Assembly (NCBI RefSeq): GCF_018350175.1
Contig: NC_058368.1
Location: 80,602,001-80,666,000, forward strand
Direction: 5' to 3'
DNA length: 64,000 nucleotides
From: Felis catus
Taxonomy: Eukaryota
Shown here: positions 1 to 44,584 of the stretch, piece after piece
How positions within the stretch are numbered: the first letter of the stretch is position 1
Layout of the letters: every line of letters begins with the position of its first letter
The notes under the pieces: model-generated
The model's database searches: none
What the model was told of the DNA's origin: nothing
What the model saw: only the letters and a program-made list of their open reading frames with translations
Translations under genes and position numbers: made by a program

Positions 1-779
1 ATACGGTTCAGATTTTTCCCTCGAAGTGCTTGAGGGTTTTGTGCTCTGTGTACCATGAGGGGTTTGCACTTAAAGTCACCCTTGGCATTGGCACATAATA
101 GCAAGGTTGCACGGTCTTTGAATGATTTAAAGCCAGGAGCCTTGGAGGCCATTTGCATTATATAGGTTCGTCTGCCAACATTCTTGTAAAACAAGCCTGT
201 CTCATCAGCGTTGAAAACCTGCTCTTCCATATAACCCTTTTCATGTATAATGCTTAGCAGATACTTTTTAAATTCTTCTGCAGCTTCCTCATCTGCAGGA
301 CCTGCCTTCTGTCCAAGTTTAACGTTTTTCATGTGGTATCGCCTTTTGAAACGTGCAAGCCAGCCTGCACTAGCTGAGAAGGGTTTAACCTTTTCCTGAC
401 CCTGGGTAACATGACTGTAAATTTCCTTGGCTTTCAGCCTCACAACAACACTGTCTACCATGCTCTTTTTATTGGTTGTCATCTCCTGAATCCACAAATT
501 TAGCTGCTTTTCCATCTTTTCCATAGCCGCATCACGCACTATAGATGTTACTTTAGCACTTTCTGGAGCAGCCTCACGTACAGATCGGCGAATATCGTCT
601 TCCTTTTTCTGGATGTACCGTATTGTTGATTCATTAACGTTGAACTCACGGCCAACAGCACTGTAACTCAGGCCTGAACGAAGCTTATCTAACACACGTA
701 TTTTCTCTGTAAGGCACATCACAGCCTTCTTGCGCTTAGGAACATTAGACAGTGCTTTAGCGCTACGCTTGGGGGCCAT
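1..779 (-). CDS. Uninterrupted pogo/Tigger-family transposase ORF (TIGD/CENP-B-like), 5' part only; runs off the window start
   Basis: Manual translation of the reverse strand from ATG 779-777: MAPKRSAKALSNVPKRKKAVMCLTEKIRVLDKLRSGLSYSAVGREFNVNESTIRYIQKKEDDIRRSVREAAPESAKVTSIVRDAAMEKMEKQLNLWIQEMTTNKKSMVDSVVVRLKAKEIYSHVTQGQEKVKPFSASAGWLARFKRRYHMKNVKLGQKAGPADEEAAEEFKKYLLSIIHEKGYMEEQVFNADETGLFYKNVGRRTYIMQMASKAPGFKSFKDRATLLLCANAKGDFKCKPLMVHRAQNPQALRGKNLNR... (259 codons, no stop, no frameshift). Contains a psq-type HTH, a CENP-B-type HTH (FSASAGWLARFKRR), the first catalytic Asp motif VFNADETG (D192, nt 206-204) and KDRxTLLLxANAxGDFK. An in-frame TAA (782-780) lies directly before the ATG. Family identity is secure; expression is unproven. 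Confidence 0.8.
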   Translation of the reverse strand, partial: MAPKRSAKALSNVPKRKKAVMCLTEKIRVLDKLRSGLSYSAVGREFNVNESTIRYIQKKEDDIRRSVREAAPESAKVTSIVRDAAMEKMEKQLNLWIQEMTTNKKSMVDSVVVRLKAKEIYSHVTQGQEKVKPFSASAGWLARFKRRYHMKNVKLGQKAGPADEEAAEEFKKYLLSIIHEKGYMEEQVFNADETGLFYKNVGRRTYIMQMASKAPGFKSFKDRATLLLCANAKGDFKCKPLMVHRAQNPQALRGKNLNR

Positions 780-1038
780 TTAAAATAGCAAAGTCACCAA
801 GAAGAACCACAAAAATGTGAAAAACGTGATGCCAGTAGAGAGTGAAAAGGACATCTGCTTACCTTAGGAGCTGAAGCAAGAGGGCAGAGCACAGTCTTGT
901 TCAAGTTTAGCTGGGAATGTGTGTCATGTCTGTGAATGACTGGGAAAGTGCCACCAGTATTGATTTTGGGGTTACAAACAAATTTTATCAAGTAGGTGAA
1001 TTTGCACAGAATCCGTGAATGAATGAGGACGTGGACTG
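1..1038 (-). mobile_element. Tigger (TcMar-Tigger/pogo) DNA transposon, left end; 5' non-coding part resembles MER82-type elements
   Basis: Minus strand reads TA|CAGTCCACGTCCTCATTCATTCACGGATTCTGTGCAAATTCACCTACTTGATAAAATTTGTTTGTAACCCCAAAATCAATAC...: a TA target site at 1040-1039, then a CAGT-starting TIR-like end, leading into the transposase ORF. Subfamily name is from memory. Confidence 0.85.
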
Positions 1039-2497
1039 TATTTGTATGGGTCTCTTGCCAAAACAAAAAAACCCAACCAAACAAAAACAGTGATCAGTAA
1101 AAATGGTTTAGTATAAAAATGTCTTACTTTAGCATACTGTTTTGTTGCAGGAAGTGGAATGGAAAGACGCTGAAGGAGAACAGAATGTAAAATGTCTGAC
1201 TTTTAAACAAGGAATTTGTTCATTAATTTTTTAAGATGGAGAATGGCTATTTCTACTGTTTTTTGAGCTACTGGACATAATTTTAAAGCATATTTAACAG
1301 TTTCAAAATGTCCTCAAGACATCAGAAATTAAAGCTTTGCAACTACTTAAAATTATTAAGCATGCATATTTGGTGCATACTTTTTCAAAATTCTTTTATG
1401 GAGAGGAGCAAATGGACCAGGAAGCAGCTTTGGTTTATCTGTTCACAGAAAAAAAAAAAAAATCCGTTCAATTTGGAGGAAATATGTTGGCAATTTCTTC
1501 TAAGGATTTTTAAATTGTAGGAAAAAAAGGGTCTGATTTTTGCCCTCTTTGTACTTCTTAACACCCTTGTTTTTCGTTTTGATTTATAACTTTAAAAGAC
1601 CCAAGCTTGAAATGAAACCAGAGTATTCCTGTAAGGCCTGATGGAATGCTGTGATATCCCCATACAAGGACAAAAGTGCCCTGAATGTCCTTAGATGCTA
1701 GAGTTCTGGATGATGCTGTAGTGTAGCTCTCAAAACTTAGTCTTCTTATGTGTCAGAACGACAAAGGGCCCTTCTCATGTCTCCGGCTTCTCTCTTGATT
1801 GCTCTCGGTTTTCTTGACTTTTCTGGTCCGGGAGGCTGTCAGTAACTCCTCACAGGTGTGGCAGGTGGCCCTCAAAGTTCTCTCTTGGCAGCCTGCACCG
1901 GGCCCTCCTCGACGCTCTCCGCCCGTGGTAGAGGCCGCAGACAACTGCTTCCTAGCTGACTTGCTCACTGATATGTAACTGGCTATTCTGGTTAATCATT
2001 AATGAAGCACGTGGTGTGTATTCGGGAAGGAAAACATTGCACTTCAATCCCAACATGCATAATTTATGTTGCCAATTATTCTAAATCCTCGTAATAGAAT
2101 ACCGGTTCCACTCTCCCAAGCCGGTGGCTGGGAAGAACTGAAGATAGGGTTCCCTCCAGCCCCTTCAGGGTTGCTCACCGCTGAGGCCCTGCTCTCCGGG
2201 ACCCTCTGGGCAGGGCGGGCTGTGTCCGCTGGGGCCAGGCGAGGATGAGGGCCAAGTGCCGGGAGGAGTCTGCGCGTGGGCTGGGTCAGGTGGGCCGTGT
2301 CAGAGGATGAGAACCACGCGCTGGGTGGAGGAGGCCGCGCGTGGGACCAGGTGCGCAGGTGCGCCCCGTGTCGGAGGACAAGGACCTGGTGCTCGGCGCG
2401 GGGGAGGATGGAGGAGGAGGAGGTGGAGCCCGAGACTGAGACCGCGGGTGGGGCCAGGTGCGCCGCGTCCGAGGACAAGGACAAAGTGCTGTGGGGG

Positions 2498-2527
2498 GGA
2501 GGAGGAGGAGGAGGAGGAGGAGGAGGA
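2498..2527 (+). repeat. (GGA)10 microsatellite within the CpG island
   Basis: Direct reading: a G run followed by ten GGA units. Confidence 0.95.
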
Positions 2528-2654
2528 GGCGGCCGTGGGTGGGGCCAAGTGCAGGGGACAGGCGGCCGCGCGTGGGGCCAGGTGCACCGCGTCTGCCGGC
2601 GCGAGGGCGAGGCCGGAAAAGGCGGTGCGCTGGCCGGCCGGGGCGCGGTCTGAA

Positions 2655-2668
2655 TACGTCACTTCCGG
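2655..2668. promoter_or_regulatory. Overlapping CRE/ETS composite motif
   Basis: TACGTCACTTCCGG (reverse complement CCGGAAGTGACGTA), close to the composite CCGGAAGTGACGTCA motif bound by GABPA and CREB1. Confidence 0.7.
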
Positions 2669-2669
2669 T

Positions 2670-2733
2670 GGCGGCCCACTTCCTGGAGAGGGCTGGGGCC
2701 TGAGATTGGTGCAGCCCAGAGGAAGGAAAGACG
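2670..2733 (+). other. ARHGEF7: Candidate non-coding alternative first exon of ARHGEF7 (short isoform); start approximate
   Basis: Strong donor ACG|GTGAGC (GT at 2734-2735) just downstream of the ETS/CRE motif and 170 nt upstream of the exon 2 acceptor; no ATG in the segment. Confidence 0.55.
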
Positions 2734-2903
2734 GTGAGCGGCGGCGGCGGCCCAGCGGGCGGGCGTCAGGGGCGGCCGGGGTCCCTCCGGGCCGCCGGGG
2801 CCGCCCGTCCGCGTCCTCTCGCCCGGGGCCGCTTGCCGGCGCCGCCCTGGGTCGCGTCCGCGGCCTCCGCGCCGCCGCTCAGCGCCTGTGCTCTGTGTTG
2901 CAG

Positions 2904-2990
2904 GTTTACCCGGAGCCCCGGAGCGAGAGCGAGTGCCTGAGCAATATCCGCGAGTTCCTGCGAGGCTGCGGGGCCTCCCTGCGGCTGGAG
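2904..2990 (+). CDS. ARHGEF7: ARHGEF7 exon 2 (CH domain): VYPEPRSESECLSNIREFLRGCGASLRLE
   Basis: Acceptor ctctgtgttgcag|GTT, donor GAG|gtgagc; 87 nt, phase 0/0; peptide matches the beta-PIX calponin-homology region. Confidence 0.97.
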
Positions 2991-4785
2991 GTGAGCGGGC
3001 GCGGGGCGCCAGGAGGGGGGCGGGCCGGGCTGGCGGCGCCCGGAGGCCCGGGGGAAGGGAGCGAGCGCGGTCGCGGGGCGGGGAGGGGCCGCTGCGTGCA
3101 GCCCCGAACTGGGCTGTCGTCGCTCTGAAGAAGAGCCTCAGGAGCTCGTGGGTAGGTGTCACGCTTTTGCGAGAACCGTTCCTAAGGGGTGCGGTCGATT
3201 CCTTGTTCCCTGCCTTAGCCTGTGCTTTTAGGGGTTCCCCGGGGGACCCGCATTCAGGGCTGGGTCAGCCCCTTAGAATTTCTAGCAGGTAAGCGGGCAA
3301 AACCGGGCACAAATGAAAGGACCCCGAGCCCTCCCAGCCTCACGCCTTTATCTGCTTTTTTTTCCTACCGCCAGAAGGTAGGCGGTGTTTAGGTTGGAGG
3401 TAAACCTACGTCTTGGGGAGTGTACCCGGCGGGGTGTGTCTGCTGTGTAAGGTTTTGTCACTGTTCTAAATACGGTCTTTCAGCGGCAGTTCTCTGGAAA
3501 CCTCCTTTACAGCTCATTTTACCGTATGATTTTTCCTAACCTTGGGGTAGTGCTTTTGATCCGGAAACCTAGACATTGTTTCATTTGGGAACTCCAGCTC
3601 GAAGTGGTTGTGGTCACGTCTGTGCTTCCATCGTTTCCTCCTGCTGCTTTACCACCTGTTTCCTTATCAGAGCTGAGCTGAGTTTGAGCAGGCTGGCGGA
3701 GAAGAGTATATGAAGGCATCTCCGGTGGAACCTGTTGTGTAAGAGGATTCCATAAAGTTTTCCCCTCCTAGCACAGTCTTAGTGTGGGTTTCTTGGGAGA
3801 AATCTAGAAGTCCAGTCGGTGAGGGCAAGTTTCATGGCAACTCATTTGTTGAAGTTACACTGGCATCAAGAAACCAAAATCCTGTCCTGCGTGATTGTGA
3901 ACATTAAGGTATCTCTTTTGTAGTATTTGAGGTCTGCGAGGAAGTCCCTTACAGGTACCTGAAAGGCTTAGTAGAGATCCCGGAGACCCTAGGGCTGTTT
4001 AGGAGGGGGCAACATTTCAGAAAGGCTTTGTCATCTTGTTCTGGACTCCCCTATTGGGCTGTGAGAATATGTGTTCCTGGTAGCAACGTTTGCTTTTCCT
4101 TGACCTTTGTTGTGAGACTATTTTCATCAAACTGAGTTTTGGTTGTGATAGTAAATTTGAAATTCAGTTTGCACATTAAATTTACAACCTCACAACTTCA
4201 GTGTTCAGTGTAGGACTCTGTAAGAAAGTATTAAAGTGGAGTCTTAAAAACCCTTTACCTTTCGCTCTCCAGAGGCTGCTGTTGAAATTTCATATCCTGT
4301 CTATCTTTATAACGAAGAGTTTAATGATGCTGTAGGAGAGGTCACTAACTTATCCCAAGCATCTAGAACAGTTCTTGGAGTTATAGTAGGCCTTCAATAA
4401 ATCTGCAGTTGATAGCAAATAATTGATTTTTTTGTTTATAAGGAAACTTGTGGCTAGTTTTTAAAGAGTTTTAAATTTTAAATTCGGTAAATAAATTTGA
4501 GAGGCATGTTTTGTTAGCATACTTTCAGTTTCCGTAGTAAGTCACACTTCAAACTCCTAATTGCCTAGGATAATGAAAATAACAAAACACATCAAAACTC
4601 TCACATTGTTGAGTCACTCTGGTTTTTGTTTTGTTGTAGGAAGTTACCCTGAAAAATGAGTTCTGTATGGTGTGAATCCTACTTGGGCTTCCAGACTTGT
4701 TCTGATCTGTGGTGTGAAGGTACTGGCCTATTCCCTGAAAGGTGGCCTTGCGTGCGGAGCACATGCAGCAGTTTCCCAGGGTTTT

Positions 4786-44086: not shown

Positions 44087-44288
44087 GACATGACCGATAA
44101 TAGCAACAGCCAACTGGTGGTGAGAGCGAAGTTTAACTTCCAGCAGACCAATGAAGATGAGCTCTCCTTTACGAAAGGCGACATCATCCACGTCACGCGG
44201 GTCGAGGAGGGCGGCTGGTGGGAGGGCACGCACAATGGCAGGACCGGCTGGTTTCCCAGCAACTACGTGCGGGAGGTCAAGCCCAGTG
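44087..44288 (+). CDS. ARHGEF7: ARHGEF7 exon 5 (SH3 domain; ATG 44090 is the start of the short beta-PIX isoform): [67 protein letters not shown]
   Basis: Acceptor tttttag|GAC, donor GTG|gtaagt; 202 nt, phase 0/1; SH3 motifs ELSF, GGWWEG and GWFPSNYV. Confidence 0.99.
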
Positions 44289-44584
44289 GTAAGTGGCGTG
44301 CGGGCAGAGGGATGCCGCTTGTCCTCCAGGACAGGTGATTGCACTCACGCACTCACGCGAGGGCTTCTCCCTCCCTGGCTAAGCTTGTATAGATGGCCCT
44401 GGGCTGAGGGTTCTCCTTCTTCTCTAGTTGTTCTTCAAGGAGAGTGATTTTTACTTTACCCCTGCCTTGGGGTGCCAGCATGAAGGATCTGTAGTTAAAA
44501 GTAGCATTTCAGTCGGTTATGGTAACAGTTTAAAATTAGGACTTGGGAGTTTGCTCTATCATACAGGCTATTAATAAAAAGAAA

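Follow-up and report, generated by a model that had tools for sequence, protein, structure and literature searches.

A TIGD1-like transposase gene lying antisense within cat ARHGEF7 and its possible transcription from an internal CpG island

We describe here a locus of the domestic cat (Felis catus) at which a gene derived from a pogo/Tigger transposable element has its start codon 1.4 kb from the edge of a CpG island internal to the host gene ARHGEF7. The window, by which we mean the whole stretch of 64,000 nucleotides (nt) that was analysed, covers positions 80,602,001 to 80,666,000 of contig NC_058368.1 (assembly GCF_018350175.1), and positions are counted from its first letter unless a chromosome is named. 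An initial annotation of this DNA had proposed that the island drives a two-exon transposase messenger RNA (mRNA) leftwards, on the minus strand; we report on the gene, its host and the signals on which such a transcript would depend.

The transposase gene and its relatives

The part of the gene inside the window and the transposon sequence upstream of it are:

1..779, minus strand: first 259 codons of a 592-codon open reading frame (ORF), with CENP-B_N, HTH_Tnp_Tc5 and the start of DDE_1
780..1039, minus strand: non-coding 5' part of the Tigger-like element; the end reads CAGTCCACG..., with TA at 1040-1041, and homology with old copies stops here

The ORF is complete in the genome at 592 amino acids (aa), with 999 nt of it lying left of the window. 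Pfam searches with the window part returned CENP-B_N (E 1.2e-8), HTH_Tnp_Tc5 (E 4.4e-13) and DDE_1 (E 9.5e-6), and the same three families are precomputed for a relative in the fishing cat (P0001). The gene thus has the CENP-B-type N-terminal helix-turn-helix (HTH), the Tc5-type HTH and the DDE_1 domain of a pogo/Tigger-derived, TIGD-type gene. Its database relatives, named 'tigger transposable element-derived protein 1-like', come from the fishing cat (99% identity), plains zebra (P0003, 89%), dog (88%, truncated), camel (86%, a fragment) and colugo (83%). A felid-like form of 572 aa (P0002) begins at Met21, for which a start-codon change in another cat species and a transcript without the first ATG are both possible.

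About 40 DNA copies of the transposon family are present in the cat genome at 68-82% identity, plus one paralogue at 85%. Among 75 protein-level match rows in the genome, only the window copy (100%) and one paralogue (78%) are close, and both are intact; the other intact rows are 29-35% identical and are taken by us to be known TIGD/JRK/CENPB-type genes, and all remaining rows above 35% identity (36-57%) are partial, with stop codons in all but three. A retrocopy origin of the window gene was rejected, because old copies match it right to the transposon end at 1039.

A tree was built from 20 rows, namely the two cat ORFs and 18 of 119 hits, leaving out the near-duplicates P0002, P0007 and P0008, the fragment P0019 and the distant remainder. 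Two clades, A and B, are each well supported (100/99) and each extend across several orders: clade A holds cat (the window gene), fishing cat, dog, horse, camel, colugo and two more rows, and clade B holds cat (the paralogue), tiger, otter, horse, hippo, colugo and marmot, with armadillo unresolved at the base of A and B. It follows from this distribution that both genes are older than the split between Laurasiatheria and Euarchontoglires. Together with the two close intact copies in the cat, the clades match what is expected of immobile, single-copy orthologues that persisted while the rest of the family decayed. Over 588 codons, the window gene and its paralogue differ with a dS of 0.46 and a dN/dS of 0.265, from which we conclude that the window gene is under purifying selection, although part of the path between the two may predate the loss of mobility.

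That the ORF is merely an unusually well-preserved dead copy, not expressed at all, is very improbable in our judgement. Its 592 codons are open in both cat and fishing cat and the horse sequence is a full-length open ORF of 612 aa, when non-coding copies stand at 68-82% at the DNA level, and both the dN/dS value and the existence of two orthologue clades, with several orders each, speak against decay. On the other side, the truncated dog sequence (P0015) has a degenerate look, and Gao et al. (2020), in the part of their survey drawn on here, excluded TIGD1-like ('TIGD1L') sequences as 'akin to pseudogenes' (PMC7386202). The two clades argue that at least these two TIGD1-like sequences are genes.

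One residue sets the clades apart. The bracketed position of the motif LIQPL(D)QG corresponds to residue 342 of the 592-aa protein, left of the window; it reads S or N in each of the seven clade-A rows that reach it, and D in four of five clade-B rows and in armadillo. We take this D to be, presumably, the third catalytic Asp of pogo transposases. With the triad position so placed, the intact D-D-D triad that marks an active pogo/Tigger transposase is not found in the window gene, and it appears that this gene lost the catalytic residue early on. On these grounds of domain content, phylogeny and codon change, we conclude that the window gene is an old, single-copy, catalytically altered, domesticated pogo/Tigger transposase ('TIGD1-like', clade A) with its DNA-binding domains kept.

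Setting within ARHGEF7 and its internal CpG island

The host gene and the island were placed by the following features:

2180..3170, no strand: CpG island, GC 0.69-0.80, CpG observed/expected ratio (o/e) 0.5-0.9
2904..2990, plus strand: ARHGEF7 coding exon of the CH domain (VYPEPRSE...SLRLE), 29/29 residues identical to 2l3g_A 66-94; acceptor score 7.9, donor score 10.0
44087..44335, plus strand: open frame with the ARHGEF7 SH3 exon, matching 2ak5_A at E 2.6e-39; ARHGEF6 is weaker at 1.7e-32

The SH3 match establishes which gene the host is and on which strand it lies; Pfam searches with 111 of the 265 plus-strand open frames of at least 55 aa found nothing besides this exon. Residues 14-66 of 2l3g_A (53 residues, all identical) are encoded on the same strand at C1:80575514-80575681, 26.4 kb left of the window, so that CH-domain exons lie on both sides of the ORF and the transposase gene sits antisense inside a 29-kb ARHGEF7 intron. 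This intron also takes in the element together with the ETS site described below and the island's left half. The initial annotation was therefore right to place the gene antisense to the long ARHGEF7 pre-mRNA.

The island is presumably the promoter of the short beta-PIX isoform, and at about 2180-3170 it would span both proposed first exons, which are predictions. By eye, its left half (2260-2640) is made up of roughly four degenerate units of about 90 nt (GCGCGTGGGGCCAGGTGCGCCGCGTC..GAGGACAAGGAC..) plus (GGA)10.7 at 2498-2529; within the island, a tandem-repeat finder returned nothing besides the (GGA)10.7 and a doublet of 14 nt. The plus strand of 2260-2640 is strongly G-rich, with a skew of up to +0.46. 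Between island and element, the block 1800-2100 is moderately CpG-rich and could be an enhancer or a minor promoter. It contains GTTAATCATTAAT at 1991-2013, which we take to be close to the HNF1 palindrome, and an E-box (CACGTG) stands beside it.

Signals for a proposed spliced leader, and rival promoters

We tentatively favour a reading in which the ORF is transcribed from the divergent side of the island with a spliced non-coding leader. Transcription would start on that side of the internal island, a short non-coding first exon would be followed by an intron taking out the AT-rich, ATG-laden spacer, and the intron would end at an acceptor already borne by the transposon upstream of the ORF. 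A direct junction from 2179 to 870 is the simplest version, and in that exact form we consider it unlikely. The features concerned are:

2656..2685, plus strand: cyclic AMP response element (CRE) half-site ACGTCA overlapping the ETS core ACTTCCGG, with a second ETS-like motif ACTTCCTG at 2678
2731..2739, plus strand: donor ACG/GTGAGC, score 8.6
2179..2650, minus strand: proposed non-coding first exon, without ATG, with (CCT)n at 2498-2529, C-rich in its own sense
2171..2181, minus strand: proposed donor GCG/GTGAGC (exon end 2179), the sole minus-strand donor scoring at least 6 in 2760-1900
1128..1169, minus strand: possible 42-nt internal exon, a rival to the direct junction; acceptor 10.3, donor AAA/GTAAGA 7.8
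871..890, minus strand: proposed acceptor, a pyrimidine tract and AG (872-871), from the position-weight matrix and an alignment with old copies
857..865, minus strand: donor AAG/GTAAGC, last exon base 863, 8 nt past the acceptor
780..870, minus strand: proposed 5' leader inside the transposon, holding an upstream ORF (uORF)

The signals named in the initial annotation are present where it put them. On the minus strand, the donor GCG/GTGAGC closes the proposed exon at 2179 (GT at 2178-2177), the acceptor ctctgccctcttgcttcag has its AG at 872-871 and opens an exon at 870, the ATG (779-777) follows 91 nt further on, and the stretch 2650-2179 contains no ATG; on the plus strand, a donor ACG/GTGAGC follows 2733, and the two donors enclose the CRE/ETS motifs (ACGTCACTTCCGG at 2656-2667 and the motif at 2678). 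The annotation had missed the donor at 863 and the uORF, which has its ATG at 854-852 and 24 codons, and ends with TAA at 782-780, abutting the main ATG and in frame with it. It had also passed over the competing minus-strand acceptors, the donor at 1128 and the descent of the proposed acceptor from the transposon family.

Splice sites were scored with a simple position-weight matrix built on approximate frequencies, so that the scores too are approximate, against a background of all GT and AG sites on both strands of the 64-kb window. Real ARHGEF7 sites in the window scored 7.9 (acceptor 2904), 10.0 (donor 2990) and 8.6 (donor 2733). The proposed donor (7.8) and acceptor (8.75) are thus in the range of real sites, credible yet not special.

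Several observations speak for a spliced transcript from the island. A start there would need a splice, because the unspliced leader 2650-780 holds 16 ATGs and the spliced leader holds 1. No good minus-strand donor other than that at 2179 is present in or at the island, the acceptor at 871 outscores the real ARHGEF7 acceptor (8.75 against 7.9), and the ETS core ACTTCCGG occurs both in the centre of this island and next to the paralogue. The acceptor goes back to the ancestral element of the family: in an alignment (A1) of 17 rows, comprising the two genes and 15 old copies chosen for matches reaching the element's 5' part, the consensus at this place is CTGCCTTCTTGTTTCAG, and AG is found in 12 of 17 rows (11 of the 15 old copies and the window copy) and lost in the paralogue. 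Such an acceptor agrees with a published rule, by which captured transposases use an inherited acceptor just upstream of the ORF, as in eight of nine cases in the part of the study consulted (Cosby et al., bioRxiv 10.1101/2020.05.07.082677).

The element itself could instead supply the start. A CpG-poor promoter of the gene's own, situated within the transposon 5' end or immediately upstream of it (about 1040-870), would give an unspliced mRNA; minus-strand RNA from the island would then be an unrelated, short upstream-antisense product, and the donor at 2179 would have arisen by chance. We hold this to be rather unlikely. The 5'-most 169 nt of the element (1039-871) match the family consensus at 139 of 165 positions (84%), the highest value among 16 copies, the 15 non-coding copies ranging from 64 to 81% with a mean of 76%, and the donor, the acceptor and the ATG-free stretch are all within chance, as set out below. 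That rank of 1 in 16 is weak evidence (P of about 0.06) and might be due to slow mutation in this region. The element's 5' region is moreover CpG-depleted (3 CpG, o/e 0.29), unlike that of the paralogue (o/e 1.0), which would place it outside any unmethylated promoter domain; a promoter there would have to be CpG-poor and probably tissue-restricted. Eight of 13 Tigger-derived human genes, by contrast, use a neighbouring CpG island, according to the portion of the survey used here (PMC2777200).

A number of results weigh against the island-driven spliced leader, beginning with the frequency of its signals. The score of the donor at 2179 is equalled by 121 of 7,356 GT sites, about 1 per 1,060 nt per strand, so that the chance of one donor as good in the island flank of about 500 nt is near 0.4; that of the acceptor at 871 is equalled by 168 of 9,695 AG sites (chance about 0.3). 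No ATG is observed in the 472-nt stretch against 0.72 expected under a first-order Markov model, for a P(0) of 0.49. The polyadenylation signals AATAAA and ATTAAA are also missing from the minus strand of 2178-780, but with 0 against 1.55 expected this too is within chance (P=0.20), and their depletion was dropped as evidence for read-through. The named signals are real, but none is beyond chance expectation.

Other points concern splicing around the element. The donor at 863 scores 11.0, the best in the region and matched by only 10 of 7,356 GT sites (top 0.14%), and it lies only 8 nt past the proposed acceptor. As is known from work on very short exons, U1 bound to a donor so close should hinder the acceptor or define another exon, for example 929-863. 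This strong donor beside the acceptor also counts in favour of a promoter at the element's end, since it speaks against use of the acceptor. Stronger minus-strand acceptors lie upstream at 1438 (11.9) and 1169 (10.3), and 1169-1128 could be an extra exon; further competitors are found at 2127 (10.4) and 929 (8.35). The segment 1039-871, which would be intron, is the best kept at 84%, and the exonic leader inside the element is not (68 of 91 positions, 75%, with a neutral mean of 82.5%), a pattern compatible with something functional, such as a promoter, in the end of the transposon. The 24-codon uORF lies in the leader, and the main ATG has a T at -3. Finally, the proposed first exon has a GC skew of -0.35 in its own sense, and first exons at CpG islands usually have more G than C in the direction of transcription.

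Only the window copy has the derived donor at 863, where the family consensus is CTGTAAAC; if used, that donor would splice away the main ATG. The well-kept 169-nt transposon end hints at constraint, for which a promoter and a binding site for the protein itself are both possibilities. An inverted-repeat search did not recover terminal repeats; by eye, the element's 3' end lies about 1.55 kb left of the window.

A host-transposase fusion protein was rejected as a product of the predicted junction: an ATG is missing from the proposed first exon, and each of the three frames runs into a stop codon no more than 26 codons past the junction, which makes such a fusion impossible. A protein-database search with the minus-strand open frame 2179-2496, looking for ORFs crossing the donor or the junction, gave 39 word-sharing candidates, none of which scored, a result that counts neither for nor against the junction. 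Among sequencing runs, 20 contain the ORF stretch, none of them on record as RNA.

Transcription could also begin elsewhere, from a minus-strand exon to the right of 2760 and still within ARHGEF7, or from a start in 1800-2100. The latter block has 8 CpG per 200 nt (o/e 0.5-0.8) in addition to its HNF1-like palindrome and E-box, and strong minus-strand acceptors at 2488 (11.0) and 2127 could be joined to an exon lying farther upstream. The analysis found no sign of such an exon, however, the island is the nearest strong promoter-like sequence, and the paralogue has a nearest-island arrangement; we consider a different promoter of this kind improbable. For the island-driven reading, the two-exon mRNA is a plausible and reasonable prediction with visible complications, its start site, strand of initiation and junctions all being predicted, and it follows a published pattern.

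The paralogue locus and known systems

The intact paralogue ORF (593 aa) is directed away from a CpG island with the ETS core ACTTCCGG and a CCAAT box about 0.45 kb from its ATG. On the opposite strand of that island lies a first exon encoding MEEFDSEDFSTSEEDEDYVPSG and followed by GTGAGC, which we take to belong to CFDP1. The paralogue's transposon 5' region is inside the island (14 CpG, o/e 1.0). A canonical AATAAA is found on the gene strand between the ETS/CCAAT site and the element's 5' end (positions 1216-1221 of the paralogue locus, L002), so that the paralogue's transcription probably starts past this signal, within the CpG-rich end of the transposon.

The two loci are alike in transposon family, intact ORF and divergent orientation to a CpG island with the ACTTCCGG ETS core. 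They differ in that the paralogue has its ATG about 0.45 kb from the ETS site, its 5' region inside the island, its ancestral acceptor AG lost and its third Asp kept. The initial annotation had held that the transposase captured a host promoter; as a pattern, promoter capture is supported only by analogy, through the layout of the paralogue and the published route considered next.

In the portion of their work used here, Kalitsis and Saffery (2009) report that 23 of 63 human transposon-derived genes, the eight Tigger-derived ones included, lie in CpG-island bidirectional pairs, defined by two start sites, one per strand, separated by less than 1 kb (PMC2777200). For elements landing farther away, the model of their Fig. 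1D(iii) invokes a new upstream exon in the island and an intron (PMC2777200). The window element is antisense to and upstream of the host CpG-island promoter, as in that model, with its end at 1039 facing away from the island. Their lists cover human and mouse only, and ARHGEF7 and CFDP1 are absent from the text and five supplementary files of the article (PMC2777200). Literature searches joining ARHGEF7 with tigger, or CFDP1 with tigger, found nothing relevant.

Read jointly, these results could describe two Tigger-derived sister genes that date back at least to the boreoeutherian ancestor, each tamed beside a different CpG island of ETS type. The copy in ARHGEF7 would have lost the Asp, kept its DNA-binding domains and an unusually well-preserved transposon end, and be transcribed antisense through the intron that parts the promoters of the long (CH-domain) and short beta-PIX forms. 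Such transcription, or the protein, could then sway the choice of ARHGEF7 isoform. As a whole, we regard this as a speculative and improbable chain. If the spliced transcript is real, the locus would add one more clean case of a transposase becoming a host gene by way of the divergent side of a CpG island and the element's own acceptor, with the twist that the borrowed promoter is internal and isoform-specific and the new gene lies nested in its host on the opposite strand. More useful, as a by-product, is that the 'TIGD1-like' pair behaves as genuine old genes, though such sequences were excluded by the published survey in the part drawn on above (Gao et al., 2020). Neither point overturns current understanding.

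Among known systems, human ARHGEF7-AS2 is described as non-coding. The cases of Cosby et al. resemble the window gene, as far as the consulted part of the preprint goes, in a pyrimidine tract and AG just upstream of the transposase ORF that stem from the ancestral element, but they fuse host coding exons to the transposase, whereas the first exon proposed for the window gene lacks an ATG and would make no fusion (bioRxiv 10.1101/2020.05.07.082677). A close likeness is TIGD1 beside EIF4E2, where a Tigger-derived ORF likewise faces away from a host CpG-island promoter; TIGD1 is described in the portion of the article used here as a primate-specific gene of one exon that lies 130 bp from the start of EIF4E2 and retains its catalytic core (PMC2777200). 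The window gene, in comparison, is found across several placental orders, lies 1.4 kb from the edge of an island internal to its host gene, would need an intron to be reached from it, and has lost the third catalytic Asp.

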